Assembly (NCBI GenBank): GCA_036986115.1
Contig: BTQY01000003.1
Span: forward strand, 9,091-73,090
Origin: Gammaproteobacteria bacterium
GTDB taxonomy: Bacteria > Pseudomonadota > Gammaproteobacteria > BTQY01
Direction: 5' to 3'
DNA length: 64,000 bases
Shown here one piece after another: positions 6,598 through 46,838 of this stretch. Every line of letters starts with the position of its first letter. Positions within the stretch are counted from its first letter, which is position 1. The notes under the pieces were generated by a model. That model worked only from the letters and a program-made list of their open reading frames with translations, was not told the origin of the DNA and searched no databases. A program made the translations under genes and the position numbers.

Positions 6598-6759
6598 TGT
6601 AATGACCTCCATGTCAGTGTGAAGACTGCTTCGCTCGCTACGTCTTCATATACCTCGACCCATACTAGCCGGAATTATTGATGATTTAAATCCCTAATCC
6701 TGCGGGGATGGCCCTACAGGTGGGGAGTGCCGCAGGATATCTGTTAATATTGCCTGTCT

Positions 6760-8419: not shown

Positions 8420-8449
8420 TCCATATCAGGGTGTAACTTTGAGTTCTGC

Positions 8450-11068: not shown

Positions 11069-11974
<906 letters not shown>

Positions 11975-12022
11975 TACATACGGATAAACGCAAATACACA
12001 GGATAGTATGGGAGGGATGGTT

Positions 12023-13258: not shown

Positions 13259-13349
13259 TTTTATATTCCGTTATATCTGCGTTGTCGGCTACAGTATAGC
13301 CATACATGTTATGTTAGTCACTTGAGTGCTTTATAAGTTCTGACTAAAA

Positions 13350-31111: not shown

Positions 31112-31618
31112 ATGCGGGATCCCTCTGATGATATTCAGGAACTTCTCCAGAGTGGATTCCGCTACGCCCTCTCTCTAACACATGATGCATCCCGTGCCGA
31201 GGATCTGCTGCAGGAGGGGTGGGTCTCCGTGCTCCAGGCAAAGGGCCCGCATCAGCGCGGTTATCTGTTTGCCGCCATTCGAAGTCGTTTTATCGACGCT
31301 TGCCGCCGCGAGCGACGGGTGGTCTTCGAGGCGTTGACTGACGCCAATGAGCTCGGTATGGAAGGCGATCTGCAGTCTACCGGCAGCGAGGCCCCGGTCT
31401 TCGCCGACACAGCAACGCTGAACCGCGCGCTTGCCACACTGCGGCCCGCAGAGCGGGAGATGTTGTTCCTTGCGGACGTGCAAGAATATACCGCACAGGA
31501 AATCGCCGATCTGACGGGACGTCCGCGCGGGACGGTCCTGAGCCTGATTCATCGGGCCCACCGCAAACTGCGTAGTCTTCTGAAACAAGGAGAAGGAGGA
31601 AGGTCTTGTCGTGAATGA
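31112..31618 (+). CDS. ECF (group 4) RNA polymerase sigma factor
   Basis: Region 2 is DLLQEGWVSVL..RGYLFAAIRSRFIDACRRE. Region 4 is EREMLFLADVQEYTAQEIADLTGRPRGTVLSLIHRAHRKLR. Confidence 0.85.
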   Translation: MRDPSDDIQELLQSGFRYALSLTHDASRAEDLLQEGWVSVLQAKGPHQRGYLFAAIRSRFIDACRRERRVVFEALTDANELGMEGDLQSTGSEAPVFADTATLNRALATLRPAEREMLFLADVQEYTAQEIADLTGRPRGTVLSLIHRAHRKLRSLLKQGEGGRSCRE

Positions 31619-32261
31619 ACAACGCTTAAGTGAACATCTTAGTCAGTATTACAACAGCAAGCGGCTTTCGTCCGAGACGCTTGCACGCCTGACGGCGATG
31701 GTGGAGAGCAGCTCAACGGGCGTGGACAGGAAAATGAAAGCGCCACCCACTGCCTGGCGTCTCTGGCCTCGAATCTGGACCAGCGGTGGTTTGCTCGCCA
31801 CCACGTTAATTCTCCTGATTGCCTTTATCGGTGTGTTTTCGCTCGGGCGCATGATTGGGGAGGGACCGGGCCCCGGGTTGACGGGCGCGAGCCTGACCGA
31901 GGCGATCGCCAAAGAGATTGCACGCAACCACCATAAGCAGGAGAAGGTGCAGTTTGCTGTCAGGAGTTACGCGGAATTGCGCAAGAAGATGCCGAGGCTC
32001 AATTTCCCTACCATTGCCTCAGCCCGGGTTGATCCTAAACGACTGCGGCTACTCGGCGGGCGTTACTGCTCAATCCGCGGTCAAATCGCCAATCAAATCA
32101 AATTGAGGGATGAGAAGGGCCGGATCCATACTTTGTATGAAACCCGTGCCTCTGATGCCGTCGCCGGATTCACCGAAGGGGAGTTGCAAATTGACGGCCT
32201 TCGAATCTCGATATGGCGCGAGTCGGGGCTGTTGTTCGGGCTTGCCAGCCCGCAGGATTAA
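31611..32261 (+). CDS. Putative single-pass anti-sigma factor
   Basis: GTG start overlapping the sigma stop by 8 nt. It has a short cytoplasmic N-domain, a TM helix LLATTLILLIAFIGVFSLG, and an extracytoplasmic domain of about 130 aa. No HxxxCxxC ZAS motif is present. Confidence 0.6.
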   Translation: MNEQRLSEHLSQYYNSKRLSSETLARLTAMVESSSTGVDRKMKAPPTAWRLWPRIWTSGGLLATTLILLIAFIGVFSLGRMIGEGPGPGLTGASLTEAIAKEIARNHHKQEKVQFAVRSYAELRKKMPRLNFPTIASARVDPKRLRLLGGRYCSIRGQIANQIKLRDEKGRIHTLYETRASDAVAGFTEGELQIDGLRISIWRESGLLFGLASPQD

Positions 32262-32282: not shown

Positions 32283-32888
32283 CTATGCCAGTAACATGGC
32301 GGGCGAGTGTTCCAGTTGTAATTTAATTATTCTCAACCACATTGCCAGCTTGGGTTGCAGATGGGTGACGAGTTCCAGTTCTTCCTGTATGAGAGATTCC
32401 GGGGGTTGTCTAATAACTTTATTATCGCCAAATATCAGGCGAAAGAACTTACCGGTTAAACCATCCGCGGTGGGGATCGGCATCACAAACGGGCTCAGTT
32501 CAAAGCTCTCTTCCTGTGTCAGGCGTGCCCCGCCAAGGATTGGATCGACGGTAAGCCGGACTTTAAAGCGCGGATCGGTATCCGATTCAGTCTCAAGTAT
32601 GTTTCCCGGTACGTACTCCGTACAAATACTGCGATGCTCACTTAAGTGACCTTCAATTATCTGCCGATGACAAAAAGTGGTTCCGATTGAAATCGGTCCC
32701 CGGGTCTCTTTTATTAAATCAAGCACACGAGCATACGGATTCAGCCTTGATCGAAACCCAACATTTTCAACAAGCATGAAAACGAAAAAGGGTTCCACCA
32801 TAATGTCTACAGACGCTGCAAAATGAACCATTCTATATCCCTCCATGGCAATAACTTTATTGCGCCAAACCAGACCTGTCACTATCAA
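32283..32888 (-). CDS. Hypothetical protein, possibly SRPBCC/START-fold
   Basis: 201-codon ORF in a lower-GC stretch with balanced composition. The opposite-strand ORF is Ser/Cys/Arg-rich and looks spurious. The fold assignment is only an impression from the sequence pattern. The start could be Met15 (32846). Confidence 0.4.
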   Translation of the reverse strand: MIVTGLVWRNKVIAMEGYRMVHFAASVDIMVEPFFVFMLVENVGFRSRLNPYARVLDLIKETRGPISIGTTFCHRQIIEGHLSEHRSICTEYVPGNILETESDTDPRFKVRLTVDPILGGARLTQEESFELSPFVMPIPTADGLTGKFFRLIFGDNKVIRQPPESLIQEELELVTHLQPKLAMWLRIIKLQLEHSPAMLLA

Positions 32889-33011
32889 TTAATGGAGGTC
32901 TACTCAGGGCATCGACCAGTTTGTTTAGAACTTTAGGCAATGGGCAGATGCCCTGATTAAATTCTGTAAAAAACTCAGAATTAATAGGGTCTATAAATAA
33001 AGGGGTTTATG

Positions 33012-33110
33012 GTGTTGGCCGCCCTGATCCCCGGGCCAGAAGTCAGGCTGATCCGTTTCCATGGGCGTGTTCGTCCCCAACAGCAAACAGCGCAAGCCGG
33101 CTTGTCGGGA
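33012..33110 (+). pseudogene. Remnant of the C-terminus of an IS91-family (rolling-circle) transposase, with a frameshift
   Basis: It reads VLAALIPGPEVRLIRFH, then after a +1 shift GVFVPNSKQRKPA. Together these resemble the conserved ..LAALIPxPRxxLxRFHGVFAPNSKxR.. C-terminal block of IS91-type transposases as I recall it. No upstream transposase body is present. Confidence 0.5.
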
Positions 33111-33135
33111 TGGTATTAATGATACGGGAGTACAC

Positions 33136-33168
33136 CGGGTCTCCACTTCGTTTCGCCCGGAATGACAG
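33136..33168. repeat. 33-nt hairpin repeat, an inverted copy of 30353-30385
   Basis: GGGTCTCCACTTCGTTTCGCCCGGAATGACAGT matches the reverse complement of ACTGTCATTCCGGGCGCAACGAAGTGGAGACCC (30353-30385) at 32 of 33 positions. Confidence 0.8.
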
Positions 33169-33231
33169 TGTTAATTGATTGTGGTAATTGATGGGCGTCT
33201 GTAATTTCGCTGCCCGGTGACGGTGCCGGCC

Positions 33232-34410
33232 TTAGCCGCTGACCAGGGCACCATCTTTCCCCTTGAGAATTTGCCGATACAGGCGCTGGGTCTCGTGCAG
33301 GGGTTCCGTGCCAAACTCCCGGGCCAGGACCTGTTCACAGTGGCGGTACTGGAGCAGCGCCAAATCGGGGCGACCGTCCTTCACCAGGTACTCCATAAGT
33401 ACACAATGGATGTTCTCCCGGCAAGGATCGAAAACCAGGGCCTTGCGACAGATGTGTATCGCATGAGCATACTGGCCAAGTTCAGCGTAGCATTCCGCAA
33501 CCCTGGCCAGCATCTCCAGATAAAGTTCATGAAGCCGCGCCCGCTCTTCGGCGCACCAGTCCGAAAACATTTCTTCTTCCATGTAATCGCCCTGATATAG
33601 ATGTCGTGCCTCTCTGTAGCGGCTCAAGGCATCGCACCATTGCCCTTGTTGTTGTAATGCTTGTCCCTCGGCGACGAGCCGTTCAAAGACATCTTTGTCC
33701 ACCCAGATCACATCGCGTCTGAGCAGGTAGGCATTTTCGATCGTTTTCACGGCCTCATCGCTTACGCCATTAATACGCAACTCGCGCCGTAGACAATACA
33801 TGGTAACTTTGAGGCGGCCCCAGCCATGCTTTTCATCGACGCCCGGCCACAGACAGTCGATCAGGCGTTCGCGATGTACCGGGCGGTCAAGCTGAGTAAT
33901 CAGGTATTTCAACAATGTCACGGCCTGTTTGCGCTTCCACTTGCCGACATCAATGCTGTGTCCACCCACCACGATACCGAAACCACCGAGGGTAAATATC
34001 TGCAGCGTATTTTGCTGTGGCTCGGGAGTTGCCGCCGCCCCATCACGGAGAAAAATGATGGCCATGACTTTGTCGGCATACAGACGGCGGGCCCGTCCCG
34101 ACATGGCGACCGAGGCGATACTGGCCATAACCCATTTGCCGCTACGGTGCCGCAAACGGCAGCTGGGCACGCCGTAGGGTATGCAGTTTCGGAAAGACCG
34201 GCAGATATCACAATCGGGGTGACACAGGGGCTCGCCGCCGGGCAGGGTGGCCTGCAGCACATCGCCACAGTACCTGCCAATCGCCTCGGATGCGGTATAG
34301 CCAAGCAAGCGTTGCGCGGGGGCATTCCAGGCCACGATCCTGGCATCGGCGTCGATAGCGAAGGCGGCATCGGAGGCGAATTCAATCAAATCAGCGGCAT
34401 GTGTAATCAC
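33232..34410 (-). CDS. One-component transcriptional regulator: Cys-rich PAS domain + OmpR-type winged helix + BTAD (SARP family)
   Basis: The PAS domain is FAIDADARIVAWNAPAQRLLGYTASEAIGRYCGDVL.. with Cys48/63/67/70/76/84. The winged helix is LQIFTLGGFGIVVGG..KRKQAVTLLKYLI..RERLIDCLWP. The BTAD is VDKDVFERLV..ALSRYREARHLYQGDYMEE..LMEYLVKDGRPDLALLQYRHCEQVLAREFGTEP. GTG start with GAGGG SD. Confidence 0.8.
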   Translation of the reverse strand: MITHAADLIEFASDAAFAIDADARIVAWNAPAQRLLGYTASEAIGRYCGDVLQATLPGGEPLCHPDCDICRSFRNCIPYGVPSCRLRHRSGKWVMASIASVAMSGRARRLYADKVMAIIFLRDGAAATPEPQQNTLQIFTLGGFGIVVGGHSIDVGKWKRKQAVTLLKYLITQLDRPVHRERLIDCLWPGVDEKHGWGRLKVTMYCLRRELRINGVSDEAVKTIENAYLLRRDVIWVDKDVFERLVAEGQALQQQGQWCDALSRYREARHLYQGDYMEEEMFSDWCAEERARLHELYLEMLARVAECYAELGQYAHAIHICRKALVFDPCRENIHCVLMEYLVKDGRPDLALLQYRHCEQVLAREFGTEPLHETQRLYRQILKGKDGALVSG

Positions 34411-34473
34411 TTCGCCTGACCCTCAACAATAAAAAGTCCCTTTTATTCTATAAAGGAAAAAATTGTTCATGCA

Positions 34474-34487
34474 TTGATACACATCAA
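34474..34487. promoter_or_regulatory. Perfect FNR/ANR/Dnr-type box TTGAT-ACAC-ATCAA
   Basis: Exact match to the palindromic consensus TTGAT-N4-ATCAA. Its centre is about 70 bp upstream of the regulator GTG (34410). A TATAGAAT -10-like sequence on the minus strand (about 34446-34453) is spaced roughly as expected for a class II promoter. Confidence 0.6.
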
Positions 34488-34853
34488 TAATTAATATTTA
34501 CTTAGCTAAGCTAATGTTTTTACTAATTTATTCAGGAGCAGACAGCGAGGCTAACAGTTTTATCGAGTGCATACCAGAGGATGATGAAATCGGCAGTGAC
34601 GCGTCAAATTACCCCCCAGACTCCCGCCCCGCCTGTTTCACCAGGGCGGACCATAGTTAATGGAATTCGGCATGTATATCAATAGTCTAAGCCTGTATAA
34701 CGGTCGTTATCTGCGGCGGTTGTGTCACCGGTTGCCCCTGAACACGAATCCCTCACGAAATATGCGGGTTAAAGCGTCAGGCAGGTATCGCGGCGCCGTT
34801 GGCACCATCGTCGCCGGGCCGGCAACTTATCTTCTCCCCCTTCTCACTATTTT

Positions 34854-34872
34854 GTGTCACCGGAGTGTCACC
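34854..34872 (+). promoter_or_regulatory. Tandem direct repeats GTGTCACC-N3-GTGTCACC (11-bp register), a candidate SARP operator at the nar-operon promoter
   Basis: GTGTCACC occurs at 34854-34861 and 34865-34872. A third identical octamer lies at 34722-34729, 132 bp (12 x 11) upstream. TATACA (34882-34887) lies 9 bp downstream of the last repeat. The start codon of the first operon ORF is at 34939. Confidence 0.45.
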
Positions 34873-34938
34873 AGCGCGTGCTATACAGGATCACACTTTG
34901 AGGACAAGGCTGGATTAGGCGCTATGGCCGGAGAACAT

Positions 34939-35181
34939 ATGAAGGTGTCTTTCGTGGCACGTATCTGGCTGGAGCCTGGAAATAATGGGGCCGCAACGTG
35001 GCGCGGGCACATTCAGCATGTTCAGGGCAAAGAGGAAGAGTATTTTCAGGACTTGATGGAAATGCGCGAATTTTTAGGCCGGGTGAGTGGGACAGCGGGG
35101 CCGCCAGTGTCTGCACAACCGCTCAAGGACGTCACGAAATCAGAGCCGGGCACAGTCACTAACATGAAACAGAAGGATTAA
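34939..35181 (+). CDS. Small (80 aa) hypothetical protein, first ORF of the nar operon
   Basis: GGAGAA SD lies 5 nt before the ATG. The product is MKVSFVARIWLEPGNNGAATWRGHIQHVQGKEEEYFQDLMEMREFL.. The longer track ORF (from 34660) would run through the promoter-like repeats, so it was trimmed. Confidence 0.45.
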   Translation: MKVSFVARIWLEPGNNGAATWRGHIQHVQGKEEEYFQDLMEMREFLGRVSGTAGPPVSAQPLKDVTKSEPGTVTNMKQKD

Positions 35182-35317
35182 TCAGAGATACAAATGCACT
35201 TTGATAGAGCAACCAGCATAAGCGGAAAATGGTTTTTTAAAATGGCATGTAAGCACAGCGGGTGCTGGATTCATTTGTTACACGGATCGGGGTCTTAGGC
35301 TTGAAAGGTTGGCAAAT

Positions 35318-36184
35318 ATGATTATCGAACTTACTACGGGTAGATGGCAACTCCCTGCTTTGGGAGCCCTTTTAATGGTTGTCTGGTTGGGGCCGGTACA
35401 AAACAGCAGCGCGGCGGAGCCTGGCGAACGAATTTTTCAAAGTACCTGCTCGGGATGCCATTCTATCGGGGGTGGCAGCATCGTTGGCCCCGATTTGGCG
35501 GGTGTCCATGACAGGCGATCGCAGGCGTGGCTTGAGAAATTTGTAAAATCATCACAATCAGTGATTGCAGGCGGTGATCCCGATGCAATCGCCGTATATG
35601 AAAAATTCAACAAAATCCCCATGCCAGACAGTCCGATAACAGCAGGGCAAATCAAGGAAGTACTGGCATATATTAAAGTGGCGAATACGCCGGGCGAAAT
35701 TCAAGAGGAGGCGAAGGAGCAGGAAAAGGTCGCGTCCAAAGAAGACATAGTCCTGGGACAGAAACTTTTTCAGGGTAAAATCCGTTTTGAGAACGACGGA
35801 CCAACCTGTATCTCCTGTCACGATGTAAAAAATGATGCCGTAATAGGCGGTGGTGTTCTGGCCAGGGAATTAACCACAGTATTTTCTAAAATGGGTGGCA
35901 CCGGGGTACGGGCCATCTTGGGTAAGGCCCCCTTTCCTGTGATGGAGCACGCCTACAAGGACAAGGCATTAAGCGAAACCGAAATATTTTCCCTGGTCGC
36001 TTTTTTGCAGGATGCCGATGAACAACATGCCTATCAACAGCCAAGAGATTACGGCACGGGGCTTCTCCTCAGTGGCATAACAGGCGCATTCATTTTATTT
36101 GGATTTTACTCCCTGCTGTGGTTGCGACGGAGAAAAGATTCGGTAAACCAGAAAATATATGATCGACAGGTCAAGTCTGAATAG
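35318..36184 (+). CDS. Membrane-anchored periplasmic dihaem c-type cytochrome
   Basis: A signal peptide (..VQNSSAAEP), two CxxCH motifs (CSGCH, CISCH) in two class-I-like domains, and a C-terminal TM helix GLLLSGITGAFILFGFYSLLWLRRRK. The gene ends 64 nt before narG. Confidence 0.8.
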   Translation: MIIELTTGRWQLPALGALLMVVWLGPVQNSSAAEPGERIFQSTCSGCHSIGGGSIVGPDLAGVHDRRSQAWLEKFVKSSQSVIAGGDPDAIAVYEKFNKIPMPDSPITAGQIKEVLAYIKVANTPGEIQEEAKEQEKVASKEDIVLGQKLFQGKIRFENDGPTCISCHDVKNDAVIGGGVLARELTTVFSKMGGTGVRAILGKAPFPVMEHAYKDKALSETEIFSLVAFLQDADEQHAYQQPRDYGTGLLLSGITGAFILFGFYSLLWLRRRKDSVNQKIYDRQVKSE

Positions 36185-36248: not shown

Positions 36249-39200
36249 ATGGGCTGGATAAAAGACATTATTTCACCAGAAACTCGGCAGTGGGAAGAGT
36301 TCTACAGAAATCGTTTCCAACACGACCGTATTGTCAGGAGCACGCATGGCGTGAATTGCACAGGTGGTTGTTCCTGGCAGATCCATGTCAAAGACGGGAT
36401 TGTGGTTTGGGAAACACAGCAGCTGGACTATCCGCTGCTTGAAGATTCACTCCCGCCTTATGAACCCCGGGGATGTCAGCGAGGAATATCCTATTCCTGG
36501 TATCTTTATAGTCCACTACGCATCAAGTATCCGTTGATCAGAAGCTCACTGATTGAAGCCTACCGTGAAGAAAAGGAAAAGACGGGTGACCCGTTACTGG
36601 CATGGGAGTCTTTGCAGGCCAATACCGAAAAACGCCGGAAGTATCAAAAGGCGCGTGGTATGGGTGGTTTCATGCGCGCCAGCTGGGATGAAGTGCTCGA
36701 ACTCATGGCGGCCGCGAATATCTATACCGCCAAGAAGTACGGGCCCGACAGGCTTTTCGGTTTTTCGCCGATCCCGGCCATGTCCATGCTCAGTTACGCG
36801 GCAGGCGGACGCTTCCTGCAACTGTTCGGTGGGATCAACCTGAGTTTCTACGATTGGTATTGCGACCTGCCGACCGCCTTCCCCGAGATCTGGGGTGAGC
36901 AGACGGACGTTTGTGAAAGCGCAGACTGGTATAACTCAAAAATGATCGCCGATATGGGGGCGTGTCTGAACATGACGCGCACACCGGATTGCCACTTTTT
37001 TGCAGAATCCAGGCATAACGGCACCAAGGCGGTGGTGTTCTCTCCCGATTTCTCCCAGGTCTGCAAATATGCAGACCAGTGGGTCCCCCTGCATGCCGGC
37101 AGCGATGGCGCGCTCTGGATGGCGGTCTCGCATGTCATCCTGAAAGAATTCCATCATGACAAACAGACCCCTTATTTCCTCGAGTATGCCAAGCAATACA
37201 CCGACAGCGCGTTCCTGGTAAAACTGGAAAAAGACGGCGACCACTATAAACCGGGCCGGCTGCTGCGTGCCAAAGAGCTTGCAGAATATAGAGACATCAG
37301 CAATGGTGACTGGAAATTCGTCAGCTTCGACGAAAATGACAAGCGCCTGGTGGTCCCCAAGGGTTCGATGGGTCATCGCTGGGACAAAGAGCCCGGCAAA
37401 TGGAACATGAAACTCGAAAACACGGTGGACGATAAGCCTTATGATCCCGCGTTGACGTTCCTGAATAACAATGATGCCGTTCTGCAAACTGAGTTTGTTG
37501 AGTGGGGACTCGATAGCAAATCGCTAAGGGGGGTCCCGGTCAAACATGTCAATACCACCTCGGGGACTGAGGCGGTTACCACGGTCTATGATTTGATCAT
37601 GGCCCAATATGGCGTGGGTCGTGGTCTTGAGGGAGATTATCCCGACGACTATACCGACAAGGACGCCGCCTATACCCCCGCATGGCAGGAAATATTTACC
37701 GGCGTGGATTCTAAAACAATTCTTCAGTTTGCCAGGGAATGGGCCAATACCGCCAATATAACCAAGGGTAAATGCATGATTATCATTGGCGCTGGTATTA
37801 ACCACTGGTATCACGCCAACCTGATGTACCGCTCCGGGGCGATGGCCCTGATGTTAAGCGGTTGTGTCGGTCGTAACGGCGGTGGGCTTAACCACTATGT
37901 GGGACAGGAAAAACTCGCGCCGATGGACTCCTGGGGTACGATTGCTTTCGCCAAGGACTGGCACGACGCGGTTCGGCTGCAGCAGGCACCGTTGTGGCAT
38001 TACATCAATACCTGCCAGTATCGTTATGATGGCCAGTATTCCCGATACAACACTGTACCGGACAACGAAATGACCCGCATGCATACGGCGGACACGATCT
38101 TCAAGTCGGTGCGCAACGGCTGGATGCCTTATTACCCGCAGTTTAAAGCCAATCCACTTGAACTTTGCAAAGACGCAATTAACAATGGTGCCACGGATAA
38201 CGAAGGCATCAAAAAGGCCGTCCTGGAAAAACTGAAATCCAAGGAGCTCGAATACTCAATCGCCGACCCCGAGGCCCCGGAAAACCATCCGAGGGTCTGG
38301 TATATCTGGCGAGGCAATGCGATTACCGGCAGCATGAAGGGCCATGAATACTGCTTTAAGCATTACCTGGGTACGCACTCCAATGATATCGGCAAGGATT
38401 CGGAAGATCACACCGAAGAGGTGAAGTGGCATGATGTGGCCCCGGTCGGGAAAATGGACCTGGTGGTGGACCTGAATTTCCGCATGGATTCCTCGGCGCT
38501 GTATTCCGATATCGTGCTGCCGGCGGCTTCCTGGTACGAAAAAGCGGATATGAACAGTACGGATATGCATTCCTTTATCCATCCGTTGTCGGCGGCTATT
38601 GCCCCGGTGTGGGAATCCAAGACGGATTGGGATATTTTCAAGGCACTGGCAAAGGCCACCAGTGAACTGGCGAAGACCCACTTCTCTGAACCACAGAAGG
38701 ACATTGTTGCCGCCCCGTTGGCCCATGACACGGCCGATGAGATAACCCAGCCGGAGATCAAAGACTGGTATAAGGGCGAATGTGAGGCGATCCCCGGCAA
38801 GACCATGCACAAGCTTGCCATCGTCGATCGTGACTACACCAAGCTCTACGAGAAGTACATCACCCTGGGTGACAATATCAGGAAAAAAGGCCTGGGTGCG
38901 CACGGCAATCATTTCATGTGCGAGGCAGAGTACGATGAGATGATTGAATCTAACCATTTCCCGACGCGGGAGTTTGAAGGCAAGATCTACCCCTCTATCG
39001 AGGAGGATGAATGGGCCTGCAATGCGGTGCTCCATCTCTCTACCCTGACCAACGGCAAGTTGACGGTCCGGGCCTATGAAAATATGGAGAAGAAGACCGG
39101 CCTGGATCTGGTCCATCTGGGAAAAGGCAGTGAGGACGTGAAGATTCGTTACGCGGATCTGCAGGCGCAGCCGAGGCGATACAACACCTCTCCGCTGTGG

Positions 39201-39863
39201 TCCGGCCTGATGAATGAGGGCAGGGCATACTGTGCCTATACCTATAACTACGACATGCTGGTGCCGTGGAGGACCTTGACCGGTCGCCAGCATTTTTATC
39301 TCGACCATGAAATGTACATTGGTTATGGCGAGAATCTCCCAACCTACAAACCGGCACCAAAGCCGGAGGTTTACGGAGATTTGAAGGAAACCCTGAAGAA
39401 TGGTGATGCCCTGATACTTAACTATCTCACCCCCCATGGTAAATGGCATATCCATTCAACCTATATGGAGAACCTGCGCATGCTGACGCTGTCCCGCGGT
39501 TGTGAGCCCTGCTGGATGAGCGAAGTCGATGCCGAAACGATGGGTATACAGGACAACGACTGGGTCGAGGTGCATAACGACCACGGTGTCTATTGTACCC
39601 GGGCGGTGGTGAGTGCACGCATTCCTCGCGGGGTCTGTATTGTGTATCACGTACCGGAAAGGACCGTGGGCATTCCGAAATCTCAACTTCGTGGCGGCCG
39701 GCGTGGTGGTGGCCATAACAGTGTGACGCGAATTCATCTGAAGCCCAATTACCTGTCTGGTGGCTATGGTCAATTCAGCTATCACTTTAATTACTGGGGC
39801 CCGATTGCTCCACAAAGGGACACTCACGTAGTTATTAAGAGAATGGATAAAGTGGTTTTTTAA
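36249..39863 (+). CDS. narG: Respiratory nitrate reductase alpha subunit (cytoplasm-facing, no Tat signal)
   Basis: 1204 aa. [26 protein letters not shown] is the FS0 H-x3-C-x3-C motif. The protein is collinear with E. coli NarG through [18 protein letters not shown]. Confidence 0.95.
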
Positions 39864-39899: not shown

Positions 39900-41453
39900 A
39901 TGGATATACGATCACAGATTTCTATGGTGTTTCATTTAGATAAATGCATCGGTTGCCATACCTGCTCGATTGCCTGCAAGAATATCTGGACAGACCGCAA
40001 AGGCGCCGAGTACATGTGGTGGAACAATGTAGAGACCAAACCGGGTACCGGCTATCCGGGAAAATGGGAAGATCAGGATATCTATAAAGGCGGCTGGGAA
40101 AAGAAGGGTAACGATATCAAATTAAGAGGGGCGGGCAAGAAAAAAGGCCTGAGCAATATTTTTCACAATCCCCATCTGCCGGTAATCGATGATTACTATG
40201 AGCCCTTTACCTATAAATATCTGGATCTGATTGAATCACCCGCGAGTGAAGATCAACCGACGGCCCGTCCGGTTTCCCTGATTACCGGTCAACCCATGGA
40301 CATCAAGATGGGTCCAAACTGGGATGACGATTTAAGTGGCACGCCGGATTATGCCAGGAATGATGTCAACATGAAGAATCTTACGCCTGCAGAGCAACAG
40401 GCGATGTTTCAACTGGAGAAGATGGCTTTTTTCTACCTGCCCAGAATTTGTAATCATTGTTTGAATCCAGGCTGTGTTGCATCTTGTCCTTCAGGTGCGA
40501 TATATAAGCGAGGGGAAGACGGCATTGTTCTGATTAACCAGAAGGTCTGCCGTGCCTGGCGCATGTGTGTCACTGCCTGCCCTTATAAAAAGGCGTATTA
40601 CAACTGGCATACCGGTAAGTCCGAGAAATGCATACTTTGTTATCCTCGCATTGAGGCGGGTTATGCGCCTGCCTGCATGCACTCCTGTGTCGGTCGTATC
40701 CGTTACCTGGGTGTCATGCTTTATGATGCTGACCGGATCCATGAAATTGCATCAGTGGACAAGGACAAGCTGATCGATCAGCAGTTGGACATGCTGATGG
40801 ATCCTTTTGATGAGGAAGTCATTGCATCGGCCAAAAAGAACGGCGTCGCAGATTCAACCATCAGGGCAGCGCAAAAATCACCTATTTACAAGTTCGTGAA
40901 AAAGTGGGGAATGGCCCTGCCGCTGCATGCCGAATTCCGCACCTTGCCGATGCTGTTCTACGTGCCACCATTGCTGCCTGTCATGGCATCACTAACTACT
41001 GTCGATAATTCTGAACAGGCGGAAAAACTGGGTGATATTTCCAAGTACTGGCCGGATAAATGGCTTTACGATACCAGTACCGAAGAACTCTGGGGGACCG
41101 TTGAACAGGCCCGTTTCCCCATGCAGTACATGGCCAATCTGTTTAGTGCGGGCGATACGGAAATGATCAAATTGCGCATCAAAAAATTAATGGCGGTAAG
41201 AATACACCGGAGATGGAAAACAGTCGGAGATATACCTGAAGAAAGGGCCAGGCAGGTACTGAAAGACGTCGGGCTTACGCCAGAGAGTGCAGATGAGATC
41301 TATTATTTGACCTCGCTTGCCAAGTTTGATGATCGGTTCGTGGTGCCTGCAGCGCATAGGGAACATGCCATCGAAATGATGGAAAACACAGGCGATGTAA
41401 AGGGAAGCACCGGATTTGGTTTCAAGGAAGGTACGGCAAAGAGGGGATTGTAA
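39900..41453 (+). CDS. narH: Respiratory nitrate reductase beta subunit
   Basis: Four Fe-S cysteine groups are present: CIGCHTCSIAC, CNHCLNPGCVASCP, CRAWRMCVTACP (Trp-containing 3Fe-4S group) and CILCYPR..CMHSC. Confidence 0.95.
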   Translation: MDIRSQISMVFHLDKCIGCHTCSIACKNIWTDRKGAEYMWWNNVETKPGTGYPGKWEDQDIYKGGWEKKGNDIKLRGAGKKKGLSNIFHNPHLPVIDDYYEPFTYKYLDLIESPASEDQPTARPVSLITGQPMDIKMGPNWDDDLSGTPDYARNDVNMKNLTPAEQQAMFQLEKMAFFYLPRICNHCLNPGCVASCPSGAIYKRGEDGIVLINQKVCRAWRMCVTACPYKKAYYNWHTGKSEKCILCYPRIEAGYAPACMHSCVGRIRYLGVMLYDADRIHEIASVDKDKLIDQQLDMLMDPFDEEVIASAKKNGVADSTIRAAQKSPIYKFVKKWGMALPLHAEFRTLPMLFYVPPLLPVMASLTTVDNSEQAEKLGDISKYWPDKWLYDTSTEELWGTVEQARFPMQYMANLFSAGDTEMIKLRIKKLMAVRIHRRWKTVGDIPEERARQVLKDVGLTPESADEIYYLTSLAKFDDRFVVPAAHREHAIEMMENTGDVKGSTGFGFKEGTAKRGL

Positions 41454-41454
41454 A

Positions 41455-42177
41455 GTGAAGTTATTAGCCCACTATCACTCGATGGCAGATTTGTTTGTAT
41501 ATCCTGATCTTGAGTTTCCGAAAAAGGTCAGGAAGACAATAAATCTTCTAAATGGAAATTACCCGCAAGCGGTCGCCGAGCTTGAGCGGTTCCTGGATCT
41601 CCTTCCGGAAAAGGAATTGAGGACAATGCAGGAATTATTTACCCGCACATTTGATGTCCAGTCAGCCACTACTCTGGATATTGGTTATGTCCTTTTTGGA
41701 GACGACTACAAAAGGGGTGAACTACTGGCCAATCTGAACCGGGAACATCTTGCTGTCAATAATGATTGCCGACACGAACTGGCTGACCATCTTCCCAACC
41801 TTTTACGACTGATGGGGAAATTGAAAGATGATGAGCTGACCGACGAACTGGTGCAGGAAATCATTGCGCCTGCTCTTTCAATGATGATCAGTGAATTCGT
41901 TCCGGAACGTGTAGAAAAGAAGAATGAGGCCTACAAGAAACACTTCAAGACCCTGATTGAATCGCCTTCTGAACGACGGGAGGTTACAACGCTTTACCAG
42001 TACGCACTAAAGGCATTATACGCTGTGCTTAAGCAGGATTTCTCATTTAACGAAGAGACCATGTCGAAACCGACGAGTGATTTCTTACAATCGGTAATAA
42101 AAGAAAATGAGATAGAAGTAAGAGCAGAGAAATCTGGCGCCAGTTTTTCAGACACTTGTACTATAGGACAGAGGTAA
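41455..42177 (+). CDS. narJ: Nitrate reductase molybdenum-cofactor assembly chaperone
   Basis: Its position between narH and narI, a size of about 240 aa and its acidic helical character. A GTG start 1 nt after the narH stop was chosen over the overlapping upstream start. Confidence 0.8.
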   Translation: MKLLAHYHSMADLFVYPDLEFPKKVRKTINLLNGNYPQAVAELERFLDLLPEKELRTMQELFTRTFDVQSATTLDIGYVLFGDDYKRGELLANLNREHLAVNNDCRHELADHLPNLLRLMGKLKDDELTDELVQEIIAPALSMMISEFVPERVEKKNEAYKKHFKTLIESPSERREVTTLYQYALKALYAVLKQDFSFNEETMSKPTSDFLQSVIKENEIEVRAEKSGASFSDTCTIGQR

Positions 42178-42181
42178 TATC

Positions 42182-42910
42182 ATGACTTCAATGAACAACT
42201 TCCTGTTTATTGCATTCCCCTACATCGCCATTGCTGTTTTTATTGTTGGGGTGATCTACCGCTATAAATCGAACTCATTTAAATATTCGAGTTTGTCCTC
42301 ACAGTTTCTCGAGGGAAAAATCGTTTTTTGGGGTATCGTTCCTTTCCATTTTGGAATAATACTGATATTCCTCGGACATTTACTGGTCTTTTTATTACCG
42401 GAAGATGTGTTGCGATGGAACAGTAATCCTGTCCGCCTCATCCTGCATGAAGGGATCGGCTTTACCTTCGGCATATCCATATTGCTAGGGTTGACGATCT
42501 TGATAGTCAGACGATGGTCTAATGCAAGATTGCAAATGGTCACCAATCGGATGGATGTTGCCATCGAAGTAATATTACTGGCTCAAATTATCCTGGGTCT
42601 CTGGATTGCACTGGGTTATCGTTGGGGGTCATCGTGGTTTGCGGCCGATCTCTCGCCTTATTTATGGTCTATTTTCAAGTTTGACCCACAGATCGAGGCA
42701 GTCAGTGCCCTGCCTGTTGTGATCAAGCTTCATATCATCGGCGCGTTCCTGATTTTTCTTTTAATCCCCTTCACGCGTTTGGTGCATTTTCTGGTAGCAC
42801 CTTTCCATTATATCTGGCGCCGGTATCAGGTTGTTATGTGGAATTGGGACAAGGATCGGGTCCGCAAACCCAGCACAGCATGGCAGGCTACCCGGCCAAA
42901 GAATAACTAG
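42182..42910 (+). CDS. narI: Respiratory nitrate reductase gamma subunit (dihaem b, quinol oxidising)
   Basis: 242 aa with five TM helices and conserved His-containing helices (GIVPFHFGI, KLHIIGAF, RLVHF). Confidence 0.9.
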   Translation: MTSMNNFLFIAFPYIAIAVFIVGVIYRYKSNSFKYSSLSSQFLEGKIVFWGIVPFHFGIILIFLGHLLVFLLPEDVLRWNSNPVRLILHEGIGFTFGISILLGLTILIVRRWSNARLQMVTNRMDVAIEVILLAQIILGLWIALGYRWGSSWFAADLSPYLWSIFKFDPQIEAVSALPVVIKLHIIGAFLIFLLIPFTRLVHFLVAPFHYIWRRYQVVMWNWDKDRVRKPSTAWQATRPKNN

Positions 42911-42935: not shown

Positions 42936-44417
42936 GTGGAACAAATTGCAACTGCCAAGTCACATAAGGCCCTGTTTTTAAACACCACGGCATTTACCAT
43001 TTGTTTTGCGGTATGGATGCTGAATGGCGTGCTGGTGACTTTTCTGGCCTCCAATCAGGTATTTGACTGGGGGCCCGTGGAAATCGGCTGGTTGATGGGT
43101 ATCCCGGTACTGACGGGTTCGATATTTCGCCTGCCTGCGGGAATGCTGACGGACAAGTTTGGCGGCAAACCTGTTTATTCGTCATTGCTCTTCATAGTCG
43201 CTGTACCGATGTATATGCTGTCTTATGCAGACAGTTTTTGGGAATTTGCCGTTCTTGGTTTTGGTTTTGGCTTGGCCGGGGTGAGTTTCGCCATTGGCAT
43301 TGCCTACACCTCCGTATGGTATCCGCAAAAAAATCAGGGCACGGCCCTGGGCATCTTTGGTGCGGGAAACGCGGGGGCGGCATTGACCCTGGTCTTTGCA
43401 CCAACGCTGTTGAACATGTTTACTGATAATGGCACCAATATTGAAGGCTGGCGTGAGTTGCCCAAATATTATGCCTACATGCTGATCGTCATGGGCACCC
43501 TGTTTTTAATCTTTGCCGAAAATAAAAAACCCGCCTCCCATGGAAAAAGCATGAAAGAAATGTTGCGGCCATTAAAAGATCTGCGGGTGTGGCGTTTTGG
43601 TCTGTATTATTTTCTGGTCTTTGGCTGCTTTGTCGCCTTTTCGCAGTGGCTGGTGCCCTACTTCGTCAATGTGTATTACATGCCCCTGGTGACGGCTGGT
43701 ATCCTGGCCGCCCTGTTCAGCTTCCCCTCCGGGGTGATCCGGGCCGCAGGAGGCTGGGCGGCCGACAGGTGGGGTGGCCGGGCGGTGATGTACTGGGTCC
43801 TGGGCCTGTCCGTGGCCATTAGTTTCATGTTGATTGTACCGAAAATGGACATCTACTCCCCCGGCAAGGGGATTATGAACAAGATTCCAGGTACGGTGAC
43901 TGAAGTCACCAAGCAATATGTCACTGTCGGCGAGAAAAAATATCCCCTCAAGATTAACGACCGGTCATTTGAAGAACTGGACGATGACATTGTGGTCTTT
44001 CCAACCAAATCCACCTGGCAGGAACCCGTTGTGGAGGTAGGCCAACAGGTCAAGCGCAGAGAACTGCTCGCCAAGGGTGTCACCCGGATCTACTTCCAGG
44101 CTAATGTGTGGATCTTTGCGGGCTTTGTGCTTGTATTAGGCAGTGTCTGGGGGGTTGGTAAGGCCGCCGTGTACCGGCTTATCCCCGATTACTATCCTGA
44201 GGAAGTCGGTGTAGTCGGCGGGATGGTGGGCGTGCTTGGCGGCCTGGGAGGGTTTTTCAGCCCCATTATATTCGGATATTTATTAGAGTATACGGGCCTG
44301 TGGACCAGCGCCTGGATGTTTATATGGGTCCTCTCGGTCGTCTGCCTGTTCTGGATGCACAATACGATTATGCGTATGGAGCGTAAGGAGCACCCGGAGG
44401 ATGAATTCAAGATCTGA
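42936..44417 (+). CDS. narK1: NarK1-type MFS nitrate/nitrite transporter with a hydrophilic insertion of about 85 aa between TM9 and TM10
   Basis: NNP-family motifs (GIFGAGNAGAALT; GGMVGVLGGLGGFF). The insertion is IYSPGKG..KGVTRIYFQAN at nt 43845-44099. Confidence 0.85.
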   Translation: MEQIATAKSHKALFLNTTAFTICFAVWMLNGVLVTFLASNQVFDWGPVEIGWLMGIPVLTGSIFRLPAGMLTDKFGGKPVYSSLLFIVAVPMYMLSYADSFWEFAVLGFGFGLAGVSFAIGIAYTSVWYPQKNQGTALGIFGAGNAGAALTLVFAPTLLNMFTDNGTNIEGWRELPKYYAYMLIVMGTLFLIFAENKKPASHGKSMKEMLRPLKDLRVWRFGLYYFLVFGCFVAFSQWLVPYFVNVYYMPLVTAGILAALFSFPSGVIRAAGGWAADRWGGRAVMYWVLGLSVAISFMLIVPKMDIYSPGKGIMNKIPGTVTEVTKQYVTVGEKKYPLKINDRSFEELDDDIVVFPTKSTWQEPVVEVGQQVKRRELLAKGVTRIYFQANVWIFAGFVLVLGSVWGVGKAAVYRLIPDYYPEEVGVVGGMVGVLGGLGGFFSPIIFGYLLEYTGLWTSAWMFIWVLSVVCLFWMHNTIMRMERKEHPEDEFKI

Positions 44418-44470: not shown

Positions 44471-46075
44471 ATGAGTAATATCACAAAGTGGGAAGTCGAA
44501 GATAATGAGTTCTGGGAATCCACCGGAAAGAAGATAGCAGCGCGAAATCTCTGGATCTCCATCCCCAGTCTTTTGTGCGGATTCGCCGTCTGGCTGATGT
44601 GGGGCATCATCACCGTACAGATGCTCAATCTGGGGTTTCCGTTTTCAAAAGTAGAACTGTTTACGCTCATGTCTATTGCCGGTTTGACCGGTGCCACCCT
44701 GAGGATCCCCAGCACTTTCTTCATTCGCATCGCTGGTGGTAGAAATACGATTTTCTTCACCACGGCCTTGTTGATGATTCCCGCCATTGGCGCCGGCATT
44801 GCGCTACAGGATAAAGATACACCGCTGTGGGTTTTTCAGATCCTGGCCCTGCTCTCCGGCTTTGGTGGCGGCAACTTTGCCTCTTCCATGTCAAACATCA
44901 GCTTCTTTTTCCCGAAACGCGTGCAAGGGACCTCCCTGGGACTCAATGCGGGGTTGGGAAACTTCGGCGTTACCACCATGCAGATCCTGATACCGTTGAT
45001 GATGACCGTCAGTGTGTTTGGCGGTGATGCAATGGTCCTGGTCAACAGCAGTGGCACCCTGATTGGAAAAATTGCCGCCGGAACCGACACCTATATTCAA
45101 AATGCCGGATATCTCTGGCTGCTGTTCCTGGTTCCGCTTGCCTTTGCCGGCTGGTTTGGCATGAACAATCTTGTCACCGAAACCGTTACGCCGCACCCGG
45201 GTTCACCCATTTCCGCGTTCATGAAAATCTCCGGGCTACTATCTATTGCCCTGGTGACTGCCGCCGTGGGCCTGTATCTGCTTCTGCCTGCCCCGACCGG
45301 GATAGGACTGCTAAGTAAGTGGATTGTGTTACCGCTGGTGATTATCGCGACAGTGTTGCTGATGCGCTATCTCACCACGGGCGGACTGCAGCAAAACCTG
45401 AAGCGACAATATAAAATCTTTAACAATAAACACACCTGGGCCATGACGGTGATTTATACTATGACCTTTGGTTCGTTTATTGGTTATTCGGCGGCCTTCC
45501 CGTTGGCGATCAAGGTAATCTTCGGGTATACCCACGTGGCGGGACCTGATGGCGTACTCGTACATGATGCCGTTAATCCTAATGGGCCCAGTGCCCTGAT
45601 GTATGCCTGGATGGGCCCGTTCATCGGTGCCTTGATCCGGCCAGTGGGAGGCAAGATTGCCGATAAGATCGGGGGCGCGAAGGTCACCCAGATCGTTTCC
45701 ATCGTCATGATCGCATCCGCCCTGGGCGTAGCTTATTTCATGGCCGCGGCCTACAAATCGGCCACCCCGGAGCAATATTTCTGGCCATTCTTTGGTTTGT
45801 TTATTGTTTTATTCACCGCCACGGGCGTAGGTAATGGCTCAACGTTCAGGACCATCTCCCAGGTATTCAATGCAGAGCAGGCGGGACCGGTACTGGGCTG
45901 GACATCGGCCGTTGCCGCCTACGGTGCCTTTATTATCCCCAAGGTCTTTGGTGAACAAATCAAGGCCGTGACTCCGGAATATGCATTGTATGGATTTGCC
46001 ATATTCTATGCTATTTGTCTCGCGCTGAACTGGTGGTTCTATATGCGGCCCAATGCCTATGTTAAAAACCCCTGA
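44471..46075 (+). CDS. narK2: NarK2-type MFS nitrate/nitrite antiporter
   Basis: MSNITKWEVEDNEFWESTGKKIAARNLWISIPSLLCGF is the typical NarK2 N-terminus. GLNAGLGNFG and GVGNGSTF are the nitrate signature motifs. Confidence 0.9.
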   Translation: MSNITKWEVEDNEFWESTGKKIAARNLWISIPSLLCGFAVWLMWGIITVQMLNLGFPFSKVELFTLMSIAGLTGATLRIPSTFFIRIAGGRNTIFFTTALLMIPAIGAGIALQDKDTPLWVFQILALLSGFGGGNFASSMSNISFFFPKRVQGTSLGLNAGLGNFGVTTMQILIPLMMTVSVFGGDAMVLVNSSGTLIGKIAAGTDTYIQNAGYLWLLFLVPLAFAGWFGMNNLVTETVTPHPGSPISAFMKISGLLSIALVTAAVGLYLLLPAPTGIGLLSKWIVLPLVIIATVLLMRYLTTGGLQQNLKRQYKIFNNKHTWAMTVIYTMTFGSFIGYSAAFPLAIKVIFGYTHVAGPDGVLVHDAVNPNGPSALMYAWMGPFIGALIRPVGGKIADKIGGAKVTQIVSIVMIASALGVAYFMAAAYKSATPEQYFWPFFGLFIVLFTATGVGNGSTFRTISQVFNAEQAGPVLGWTSAVAAYGAFIIPKVFGEQIKAVTPEYALYGFAIFYAICLALNWWFYMRPNAYVKNP

Positions 46076-46123: not shown

Positions 46124-46501
46124 TTGGACAAATCTAAATATTTCTATCGAACGGTAGTCTTTGCCATGCACAAAGATAAAGTGATGCTGGTGGATCTGGA
46201 TAATCCCAAGGAGGAGACGCCGCCACTAGAGTCCTGGCTGGGCGTGGTTGTCTCGTTGGCCGATGGTCAGCATACTATTCAACAGCTTCTCGATTATATG
46301 TCAGAACATTATGGTGGTAAGCCGCCTGATAATCTCGAGGAAACCATCGAATCTGTTATAAAACGACTTACCCAGGGTGAAGTCATCAAACTGGCCGATG
46401 AAGCATTCAAGCTACCATATTATTTATCACGTTCGGCAGACAAGCTGGATATTGAAATGGCCAAACAGGCAATGGCCGATGATGGTTATCGTCAGAGCTA
46501 A
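46124..46501 (+). CDS. Hypothetical small protein with a PqqD/RRE-like winged-helix pattern
   Basis: LESWLGVVVSLADGQHTIQQLLDYMSEHYGG..LEETIESVIKRLTQGEVIKL resembles the PqqD-family pattern. The start is uncertain (TTG at 46124 or ATG at 46166). Confidence 0.45.
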   Translation: MDKSKYFYRTVVFAMHKDKVMLVDLDNPKEETPPLESWLGVVVSLADGQHTIQQLLDYMSEHYGGKPPDNLEETIESVIKRLTQGEVIKLADEAFKLPYYLSRSADKLDIEMAKQAMADDGYRQS

Positions 46502-46505: not shown

Positions 46506-46838
46506 TTGCAAGGCTCGCAGTTACAACAGAGTCTGAAGTACGCTTCAAGGGAACTCGGTATTGATACTGAGATCCCGTTTACCCTGGACCTTCCCTGTGG
46601 TCGTATTGAGGCCGAAGCACTGCTGAAAGACTTTGGTTACGAATGTGGTGTTGTTATCAATATAAATACCAGCGAACTGGGGGATCTATATAAACATCTT
46701 GCGGACTTTGGCTATGGTGCTACCACATTATCAGAGCCAGGCCATTACGATGAGTATGATTCCGCGAAATGGATGATGCTTTGCAGAGAATGGGGATGGA
46801 GAGGTAATGAAGCCCCACCGGACTGGTATAAAGCGTAA
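46506..46838 (+). CDS. Hypothetical small protein (110 aa)
   Basis: The ORF starts (TTG) 4 nt after the preceding stop. I see no recognisable motifs. Confidence 0.4.
   Translation: MQGSQLQQSLKYASRELGIDTEIPFTLDLPCGRIEAEALLKDFGYECGVVININTSELGDLYKHLADFGYGATTLSEPGHYDEYDSAKWMMLCREWGWRGNEAPPDWYKA

Follow-up and report, generated by a model that had tools for sequence, protein, structure and literature searches.

The 64-kb window analysed here (64,000 nt of contig BTQY01000003.1, from the genome of a gammaproteobacterium) contains a regulator gene and, on the opposite strand, an operon for a respiratory nitrate reductase (nar). The regulator is translated from a GTG start codon and consists of an N-terminal, Cys-rich PAS domain, an OmpR-type winged helix and a BTAD domain, the last two forming the output module of the SARP family. 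By sequence comparison, this PAS-SARP protein is a homologue at both of its ends of DnrS, the nar regulator of Thermus thermophilus, from which it differs by the absence of a GAF domain. The region between regulator and nar genes holds a conserved 85-residue (85-aa) open reading frame (ORF), a predicted SARP-type operator in front of that ORF, and a perfect FNR/ANR-type palindrome on the regulator side. Positions of all features are collected in Table 1.

Table 1 Features of the regulator and nar region, numbered from the first nucleotide of the window.
Feature	Position	Strand	Basis
Regulator gene, 392 aa, PAS-SARP (Cys-rich PAS, winged helix, BTAD)	33232..34410	-	GAF-less homologue of Thermus DnrS
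PAS domain, N-terminal, aa 1-125	34036..34410	-	Pfam, NCBIfam, AlphaFold2, PDB profile search
Cys cluster C48, C63, C67, C70, C76, C84	34159..34269	-	Translation; homologue alignments
OmpR-type winged-helix DNA-binding domain, about aa 133-232	33715..34014	-	Pfam, PDB profile search, AlphaFold2, Foldseek
BTAD domain, aa 237-382	33265..33702	-	Pfam (E 3.8e-29), PDB profile search, Foldseek
Candidate -10 hexamer TAGAAT	34445..34450	-	Predicted by sequence reading
Perfect FNR/ANR-type palindrome TTGATacacATCAA (TTGAT-N4-ATCAA)	34474..34487	.	About 70 nt upstream of regulator GTG
Solitary TTGTGTCACCGG copy	34720..34731	+	Identical to first 12 nt of box region 34852-34863; inside 416-nt window-specific spacer
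SARP-type predicted operator TGTCACC-ggag-TGTCACC, 11-bp period	34855..34872	+	Comparative alignment, pattern search
Extended -10 TGcTATACA	34879..34887	+	Column counts; 6 nt downstream of second heptamer
Conserved 85-aa ORF, first gene behind the operator	34924..35181	+	Homologue search, codon-position test, AlphaFold-type model
NarC-like c-type cytochrome preceding narG	35309..36184	+	30% identity over 198 aa to Thermus NarC, E 5e-19
narG, respiratory nitrate reductase alpha subunit	36249..39863	+	NCBIfam; 58% identity to Thermus NarG
narH	39900..41453	+	NCBIfam cut-off passed
narJ-like chaperone, start codon uncertain	41416..42177	+	Weak, 40 bits, below cut-off
narI	42182..42910	+	NCBIfam cut-off passed
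Two NarK-family nitrate/nitrite transporter genes of the major facilitator superfamily (MFS)	42936-44417 and 44471-46075	+	Family matches

The domain architecture read from the sequence in a preliminary description of the locus was borne out by Pfam, NCBIfam, AlphaFold2 and Foldseek. The BTAD model (PF03704) was matched over its full length, with profile positions 1-146 of 146 covered. The PAS model PF00989 scored 32.9 bits (cut-off 22.6) at residues 8-52 and the NCBIfam sensory_box model TIGR00229 scored 26.8 bits (cut-off 22.9), in both cases with alignment of the N-terminal half of the profile alone. Trans_reg_C matched residues 162-225 at 22.2 bits, under its cut-off of 26.2, though the same domain is precomputed for most homologues; AfsR/SARP models of NCBIfam matched as well. 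An AlphaFold2 model built from an alignment of 120 homologues (mean predicted local distance difference test score, pLDDT, 81.6; predicted TM-score 0.68) displayed a five-stranded PAS sheet (strands 15-19, 24-28, 80-87, 93-102 and 117-123) followed by the winged helix and the helical BTAD. The C-terminal 260 residues of this model superposed on the AfsR SARP module from the RNA polymerase complexes 8hvr and 8k60 (Foldseek target TM 0.76-0.79), with the DNA-binding and BTAD module of EmbR (2ff4) as a further match, while the PAS part matched PAS and LOV domains such as 3lyx (target TM 0.69-0.71). EmbR (9-262, E 2e-10) and AfsR (about E 1e-10) were also returned by the PDB profile search. The winged helix and following BTAD of a SARP are therefore both present, as are the five-stranded sheet and the sequence signature of a PAS domain. 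No GAF domain was matched in Pfam or NCBIfam, the PAS domain being joined directly to the winged helix; Pfam detected no HisKA or HATPase domain, and neither Pfam nor NCBIfam detected the cNMP-binding-like fold and C-terminal helix-turn-helix of the FNR/CRP family.

Six cysteines, exactly those reported in the preliminary description, are spaced C48-x14-C63-x3-C67-x2-C70-x5-C76-x7-C84 (codons 48-84, nt 34269-34159). Their conservation was assessed in the best 120 of more than 500 homologues, all full-length and 55-84% identical to the window protein. C48, C63 and C67 were found in 119/119 of the sequences covering the region and C84 in 116/120, and C76 was conserved at the level of a subfamily (108/120, 90%). 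Conservation of the cluster, which the preliminary description had proposed as a check, therefore holds apart from C70, which is present in 2/120 homologues. The family normally carries C72 (104/120) where the window protein, which has no C72, carries C70. Every one of the 120 homologues contained C72 or C76 and none was without both, a pattern of exchange that would be expected of a ligand. Taken together, the cysteines are conserved in the way that ligands of a metal or iron-sulfur (Fe-S) centre with a flexible fifth position would be, although the sequence pattern does not tell an Fe-S cluster, a zinc site and a disulfide switch apart.

When the N-terminal domain was used as a profile against the whole library, multi-PAS proteins dominated the matches, and the best 150 were considered. 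Among them, each full-length single-stretch match with the Cys motif belonged to a complete or fragmentary PAS-SARP protein, and no Cys-PAS fused to a kinase or a GGDEF domain was found. The same search recovered more distant PAS-SARP proteins (35-45% identity to the window protein), which retained C48, C63-x3-C67-x4-C72 and C84 and usually lacked C76. In the AlphaFold2 model, C48 lies in E-alpha, C63 and C67 in the loop before F-alpha, C70/C72 and C76 in F-alpha and the loop that follows, and C84 in G-beta. Residues 53-90, which run across E-alpha, F-alpha and G-beta, constitute the family-specific Cys-rich part of the domain; the cofactor pocket of PAS proteins such as FixL, LOV and PYP is lined by the same elements. 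No solved structure was matched over the Cys segment, since the PDB profile matches end at about position 52. The BTAD cysteines C286, C307, C330 and C358 were considered as a second metal site and rejected because C307 and C358 are not conserved in the distant relatives.

Close homologues of the regulator occur in metagenome-assembled genomes (MAGs) of Gammaproteobacteria and Burkholderiales. The MAGs are named as Woeseia (Woeseiaceae), Acidiferrobacteraceae or Acidiferrobacterales, Thiogranum, Sulfuricaulis, Burkholderiales or simply 'Gammaproteobacteria', and the family itself carries only generic names in the databases. Two of the related loci, L011 and L012, have identical promoter regions and near-identical tblastn coordinates and identities over the regulator region but were assigned to MAGs of different phyla (Acidiferrobacterales and Rhodothermales), which is probably a binning conflict.

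The adjacent nar operon is genuine. NarG scored 1465 bits against the TIGR01580 cut-off of 1084, and NarH and NarI also passed their NCBIfam cut-offs. The operon does not start at narG, as had been described initially, but with the 85-aa ORF and a dihaem-type, NarC-like cytochrome c; a review of Thermus describes such a NarC-type first gene as absent from the nar operons of mesophiles. No gene of the NarXL, NarQP, FNR, Dnr or NsrR type was found among window ORFs of at least 150 aa.

The 85-aa ORF is the first gene behind the predicted operator in the window and the regulator's partner in essentially all related loci. It has 203 homologues, of which the best 120 are, with few exceptions, 72-111 aa long, and most have exactly 85 residues. 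Nucleotide differences fell at codon positions 1:2:3 in the proportion 240:209:608, as is typical of coding sequence. The predicted protein has a beta-beta-beta-alpha core (pLDDT 76-90 over residues 11-60) with a disordered tail, and its invariant residues are W15, E17, R27, G28, H32, F41 and F50. It matched no Pfam or NCBIfam family and no PDB fold, and no homologue was found at the Thermus or Deinococcus loci. A longer ORF of 173 aa, called mechanically from 34660, was rejected as an artefact of in-frame upstream sequence that includes the operator. The small ORF is separated from the cytochrome c gene by 128 nt. No terminator above chance follows it, and promoter-like sites in the region were found at about the number expected (4 versus 3.6), one weak site lying at 35201-35230.

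The operator was discovered by comparing 28 genome loci over the stretch that precedes their first downstream gene. The comparison yielded tandem direct heptamers with the consensus TGT(C/T)AC(C/T)-N4-TGTCAC(C/T) (TGTYACY-N4-TGTCACY), repeated with an 11-bp period. This pattern has one match in the 64-kb window, where about 0.1 would be expected even with one mismatch allowed. In the relatives, 38 exact matches were obtained in 30/37 fetched loci, all on the strand of the target gene. An extended -10 element (TG-n-TA-n-A-n-n) follows the second heptamer at a spacing of 6 nt that is fixed across loci, and no ordinary -35/-10 pair was found in front of the 85-aa ORF or the nar genes. Classical SARP sites are heptameric direct repeats in 11-bp units that overlap the -35 region (PMC10972967), and the conserved box fits this definition as a probable SARP binding site. 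It also lies within the 34700-34900 interval that the preliminary description had put forward for footprinting. A solitary TTGTGTCACCGG, found further upstream on the same strand, may be left over from a rearrangement or may be an additional half-site. The heptamer TGTCACC by itself was counted 20 times in the window, a number not attained in any shuffle (8.4 +/- 2.5 expected), and the copies other than the three at 34723-34872 are scattered within genes.

On the regulator side of the intergenic region, TTGATacacATCAA is the sole perfect FNR-type copy in the window, where 0.13 would be expected. If the TAGAAT hexamer serves as the -10 element, the regulator would have a class II-like promoter with the centre of this box near -42.5. 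Seven relatives likewise have FNR-type boxes ahead of either the regulator or a preceding DsrC/TusE-like gene (perfect in L002, L003, L004 and L026, with one mismatch in L001, L006 and L009); none was found in the loci with the bd-like oxidase cluster described below. The initial statement that no FNR-type control is encoded here is thus correct for the genes, within the size limit given above, but not for the sites. Because an FNR-type site lies upstream of the regulator, an FNR-type factor would act above the regulator and would not be replaced by it. The arrangement suggests a cascade of control that passes from FNR or ANR, encoded elsewhere, to the regulator and from the regulator to the small ORF and the nar genes, in parallel with the order DnrT to DnrS. 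The small DsrC/TusE-like gene was seen beside the regulator in L001 (7800-8138), L002 (9558-9920) and L004 (8357-8698), its product ending in ...KQACKIAGMRRPRAWSTG; in L001 and L002 the gene separates the FNR-type box from the regulator, a hint of a connection with sulfur metabolism.

The divergence of regulator and narGHJI noted in the preliminary description is real but peculiar to the window. In all of the approximately 30 related loci the regulator is co-directional with its targets, and only here is it inverted. The inverted segment extends from about 33194/33229 to 34426, and the next 416 nt (34427-34842), which contain the FNR-type box and the solitary TTGTGTCACCGG, have no counterpart in the relatives. 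A local inversion explains the divergent layout and should have no effect on the function of a trans-acting factor. Inverted repeats flanking the segment, which would indicate an invertible switch, were limited to short pairs at chance level.

Classified by cargo, the related loci comprised 15 with nar genes, 11 with a bd-like cluster, 3 with other genes and 5 too short to judge, so that 29 were informative. Linkage of the regulator to narG, the second check proposed originally, was thereby confirmed in 15/29 loci, in which the cargo consists of cytochrome c, narGHJI and narK genes (L001-5, 7-10, 16, 27, 29, 30, 34 and 35). Regulators of the nar-linked loci that were taken from genome contigs share at least 64% identity with the window protein. 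A function dedicated to nar is contradicted by the 11 bd-like loci, where the same regulator, small ORF and box stand before a cluster of genes for a Cyt_bd_oxida_I-like membrane protein of 625 aa, cytochrome c, a multihaem c/EB_dh protein of 825 aa and a cupredoxin-like/CarboxypepD_reg protein; the regulators of these loci are 52-59% identical to that of the window. A second copy of the box directly upstream of the cupredoxin-like/CarboxypepD_reg gene was found in L013, L017, L018, L020, L021, L022, L024 and L032 (e.g. L018 11942-17923). Judged from this distribution, the family would be a switch for low-oxygen respiratory modules in general, with the nar-linked subgroup, including the window, as one branch. 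The combination of regulator, box and small ORF appears to be a portable promoter module for different respiratory cargo.

Several further observations were made on the genes around the regulator. The NarG proteins encoded behind the same cassette in different relatives fall into two lineages, with about 94% and about 43% identity to that of the window, and both lineages pass the narG equivalog model. Among the nar-linked relatives, L029 carries a nosR-like gene and the cd1 nitrite reductase gene nirS upstream of the regulator (5405-9053), and L030 carries a gene for an H-NOX (HNOB) protein in that position (7778-8329). The bd-like loci contain cytochrome c genes and a gene for a 400-aa protein without Pfam match upstream of the regulator. 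In the window, two ORFs without Pfam match (46124-46501, 125 aa, and 46506-46838, 110 aa) lie just downstream of the second narK gene. In L004, homologues with 78% identity lie ahead of the regulator in divergent orientation and flank the FNR-type box, and the pair therefore appears to travel with the nar island. About 1 kb past the 3' end of the regulator gene lies an extracytoplasmic function (ECF)-type sigma factor gene (31112-31618), followed by an overlapping 216-aa ORF without Pfam match (the pair spanning 31112-32261) whose product is possibly an anti-sigma factor. The interval between this region and the regulator (32283-33230) has no annotated function.

An experimentally studied relative with the same role is already known. 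DnrS of Thermus thermophilus, a GAF and BTAD protein encoded immediately upstream of narCGHJIK(T), is needed for nar transcription and has an oxygen-sensitive conformation; its own expression needs DnrT, a co-encoded protein of the CRP family (PMC5748679, PMC7694296). Its oxygen sensor is described as 'not known, likely the GAF domain' (PMC7694296). When the window regulator was used as tblastn query against a plasmid collection, Deinococcus GAF-BTAD proteins ranked at the top by E-value (E 1e-23), ahead of Streptomyces SARPs. Over the SARP module the window protein is 35% identical to the Deinococcus protein (248 aa, E 7e-31) and 27% identical to Thermus DnrS (210 aa, E 7e-15).

The relationship extends to the N-terminus. 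A DnrS-family profile was built from 62 full-length homologues (Thermus, Meiothermus, Calidithermus, Marinithermus, Truepera and others), and these proteins were found to possess, ahead of the GAF domain, a PAS-like domain of about 95 aa with four conserved cysteines (C33 in 58/62, C48 in 59/62, C51 in 61/62 and C77 in 61/62). Profile-profile comparison of this domain with the N-terminal domain of the window family gave an hhalign probability of 97.8% (E 1.1e-12, 55 columns). Paired with Thermus DnrS alone, the window N-terminus gave only a suggestive match (E 0.005, hhalign 46%), the strong result being obtained with the DnrS-family profile. C48, C63 and C67 of the window protein align with C33, C48 and C51 of DnrS in the shared motif G-x-x-C-x2-[LV][LV]-Q-x3-P-x-G-x-P-L-C-x2/3-C, and the fourth DnrS cysteine falls in the same strand region as C84. 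DnrS-type proteins have a second conserved Cys-rich stretch between GAF and winged helix, C-x4/5-C-P-A-[LW]-R-G ... C ... C-L-P-[LV]-W. The Deinococcus homologues (L036 11092-12747) keep this second stretch without the N-terminal Cys domain, and they adjoin NarK/NasA and molybdopterin oxidoreductase genes.

The window regulator and DnrS therefore have homologous winged-helix and BTAD output domains and homologous N-terminal Cys-PAS domains, with three Cys columns shared and the fourth nearby. Both adjoin a narC-narGHJI-narK operon of the same type, and at the Thermus locus L037 dnrS (11704-13509) is divergent from narC-narG-narH-narJ-narI-MFS, as the regulator is in the window. DnrS depends on the CRP/FNR-family DnrT for its expression, and the window regulator is preceded by an FNR-type box. 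The two differ in that the window protein has neither a GAF domain nor the second Cys-rich linker and is 392 aa long, whereas DnrS proteins are about 600-650 aa, a difference of about 210-260 aa. The hosts are proteobacterial MAGs rather than Deinococcota, no CRP/FNR gene is co-encoded, and the window family, unlike the Thermus locus, has the 85-aa ORF and the TGTCACC-N4-TGTCACC box and stands in half of its loci beside the bd-like oxidase cluster. The window family is accordingly the GAF-less, proteobacterial branch in which the Cys-PAS is the only domain left that could sense. For this reason the leading candidate for the sensor in DnrS, too, is the Cys-PAS rather than the GAF domain; PMC5748679 and PMC7694296 ascribe sensing to the GAF domain and do not mention the N-terminal Cys-PAS.

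Likeness to other known regulators is partial. Actinobacterial SARPs (AfsR, ActII-ORF4, DnrI, EmbR) share the winged helix and BTAD and, as predicted here, the 11-bp heptamer direct repeats in place of a -35 element, and activation of afsS by AfsR offers an example of an adjacent small-protein gene as first target, comparable to the 85-aa ORF. The window regulator differs from them in its N-terminal PAS domain, where they have none, FHA or NB-ARC/TPR, and in its heptamer sequence. Its family also differs in its Gram-negative hosts and in having respiratory operons, rather than secondary-metabolite clusters, as predicted targets. According to a 2024 review, SARPs are 'exclusively found in actinobacteria' (PMC10972967); the actinobacterial host and secondary-metabolism context usual for the family are not found here, the genes being those of Gammaproteobacteria and Burkholderiales MAGs and lying next to respiratory genes. 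OrpR of Desulfovibrio vulgaris is a one-component sigma54 activator whose PAS domain (C52, C61-x3-C65) holds a [4Fe-4S] cluster and senses redox potential (PMC8359166). Compared by Cys pattern only, it resembles the window protein in a C...C-x3-C arrangement in an N-terminal PAS (C52, C61 and C65 in OrpR; C48, C63 and C67 here), but its output is AAA+/sigma54 rather than SARP/sigma70 and its regulon is different. In NreB, a cytoplasmic PAS domain binds an Fe-S cluster through cysteines and controls genes of nitrate/nitrite respiration or sulfide oxidation (PMC13478379). The analogy to NreB drawn in the preliminary description holds for function; the staphylococcal and Bacillus NreB is, however, a histidine kinase acting via NreC, with its cysteines spaced C-x2-C-x11-C(-x2-C) as against C-x14-C-x3-C...C, and the PDB profile search returned no NreB match to the window PAS beyond the generic N-terminal PAS half. 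With FNR/ANR the regulator would share a Cys-ligated, O2-labile cluster wired to a DNA-binding domain that activates nar operons, the cofactor of the window regulator being a proposal; the CRP fold and palindromic TTGAT-N4-ATCAA site of FNR/ANR differ from the PAS-SARP arrangement. No description of a PAS-SARP regulator of respiration was found in the literature searched, in agreement with the earlier remark that no PAS(Cys)-SARP regulator of nitrate respiration was known, although DnrS, which shares the SARP output and the Cys-PAS, qualifies the novelty of the type.

Given the domain architecture, the conserved cysteines, the conserved layout of operator and promoter, the gene linkage and the DnrS homology that were observed, the locus as a whole is best explained, with moderate confidence, by a one-component, redox-responsive activator of the DnrS type that acts on the neighbouring nar operon through the conserved box. 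In the proposed mechanism, the PAS domain would hold a metal or Fe-S centre ligated by C48, C63, C67 and C84 together with one Cys from the 70-76 segment. The chances that this cofactor is specifically an Fe-S centre are judged to be even. The state of the centre, most likely the presence or integrity of an O2/redox-labile Fe-S cluster, would control the SARP output. In the active form, two winged-helix/BTAD protomers would occupy the tandem heptamers, which take the place of a -35 element 9 nt ahead of the TATACA of the extended -10, and the bound regulator would recruit RNA polymerase as AfsR does. That the regulator is an activator acting at this box is considered quite probable. Transcription would then proceed through the 85-aa ORF, the NarC-like cytochrome c gene, narGHJI and the two narK genes. 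Expression of the regulator would itself depend, through the FNR-type palindrome, on an FNR/ANR-type factor encoded elsewhere, giving a two-tier anaerobic cascade. Comparable cascades run from DnrT to DnrS in Thermus and from ANR to Dnr in Pseudomonas. In the relatives, the same cassette of regulator, box and small ORF would drive either nar or the bd-like/cytochrome c cluster.

A number of points weigh against this explanation. The Cys segment is modelled with a pLDDT of only 70-77, and the window protein is without C72, the fifth cysteine of the wider family. The intergenic region between the nar and dnr genes of Thermus contains no TGTCACC box, and DNA binding by DnrS has never been demonstrated (PMC7694296, PMC5748679). 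About half of the family is not adjacent to nar. Co-transcription of the small ORF with narC and narG is assumed from the 128 nt that separate the small ORF from narC and from the finding of no terminator above chance. An FNR-type factor may moreover already supply the O2 signal, in which case the PAS domain may sense another signal, for example nitric oxide (NO), nitrite, sulfide or the quinone/redox state.

Two of the alternatives concern the nature of the sensor. The conserved cysteines might form a structural Zn(Cys)4 site or a reversible thiol-disulfide switch, with sensing, if any, by thiol oxidation or through a small ligand at another place in the PAS pocket. Zinc ribbons and redox switches just as typically have four or five conserved cysteines with C-x3-C spacing, the interchange of C72 and C76 would fit a swap of disulfide partners, and no solved PAS structure matches the Cys segment. 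This alternative is nevertheless considered rather unlikely: both characterised Cys-bearing PAS sensors, NreB and OrpR, hold Fe-S clusters, the homologous DnrS is O2-labile in conformation, and the targets are anaerobic or micro-oxic respiratory operons. The centre might also report a second signal below an FNR-type O2 sensor, for example NO or nitrite, with an Fe-S cluster being nitrosylated in the manner of NsrR, or sulfide, which NreB of B. licheniformis senses. Such a division of labour would agree with the perfect FNR box of the window and the perfect or one-mismatch boxes of the seven relatives, all of which are outside the bd-like group, and with the nirS, nosR and H-NOX genes beside the regulator in relatives. 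The DsrC/TusE-like gene between FNR box and regulator in L001 and L002, the sulfur-oxidising hosts (Acidiferrobacterales, Woeseiaceae, Sulfuricaulis, Thiogranum) and the sulfide-sensing [2Fe-2S] cluster of NreB as a precedent point in the same direction. If it were true, sulfur-oxidising denitrifiers would tie nitrate respiration to their electron donor or to intermediates of the pathway. DnrS is, however, described as an oxygen sensor, and the bd-like loci lack both an FNR box and an evident connection with N-oxides, which leaves a second signal of this kind improbable.

A further alternative accepts the regulator and its box but restricts the direct target to the 85-aa ORF, in the manner of the AfsR and afsS pair, with nar transcribed from its own promoter under its own regulators and the linkage due to co-inheritance of an island. 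The small ORF is the universal neighbour while the downstream cargo varies, and the gap before the cytochrome c gene, together with the weak promoter-like site within reach of it, would leave room for a separate promoter. Such promoter-like sites occur at chance frequency, though, and no above-chance terminator closes the small ORF. The second box directly before another cargo gene in the bd-like loci argues that the box is used for the respiratory genes themselves, and DnrS is required for nar transcription in Thermus. Restriction to the small ORF is accordingly regarded as very unlikely, and action of the DnrS-type activator on the whole nar operon is preferred.

On a broader view, the four-Cys PAS-like module may be the actual O2/redox sensor of the entire DnrS superfamily, with a labile Fe-S cluster as its cofactor, and PAS(Cys)-SARP proteins may be widespread, unrecognised one-component switches, independent of FNR or subordinate to it, that use a SARP box to plug interchangeable respiratory modules (nar, bd-like oxidase) into sigma70 promoters outside Actinobacteria. 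This generalisation is put forward tentatively, its chances being somewhat below even. Relative to the published work on DnrS, the new elements are a defined operator, a universal 85-aa first gene, reuse of the cassette before nar or bd-like clusters, and a Cys-PAS domain common to DnrS. The last provides a concrete, mutable candidate for oxygen sensing by DnrS (C33, C48, C51 and C77) that is testable in Thermus. SARP-type activators with 11-bp direct-repeat operators on core respiratory operons of proteobacteria would run counter to the textbook view of these proteins as actinobacterial regulators of secondary metabolism. The hosts (Woeseiaceae, Acidiferrobacterales and Sulfuricaulis-like sulfur oxidisers) are abundant sediment denitrifiers, for which a switch with its operator allows regulon prediction and would help in reading the expression of nar and bd-like oxidase genes in metatranscriptomes.

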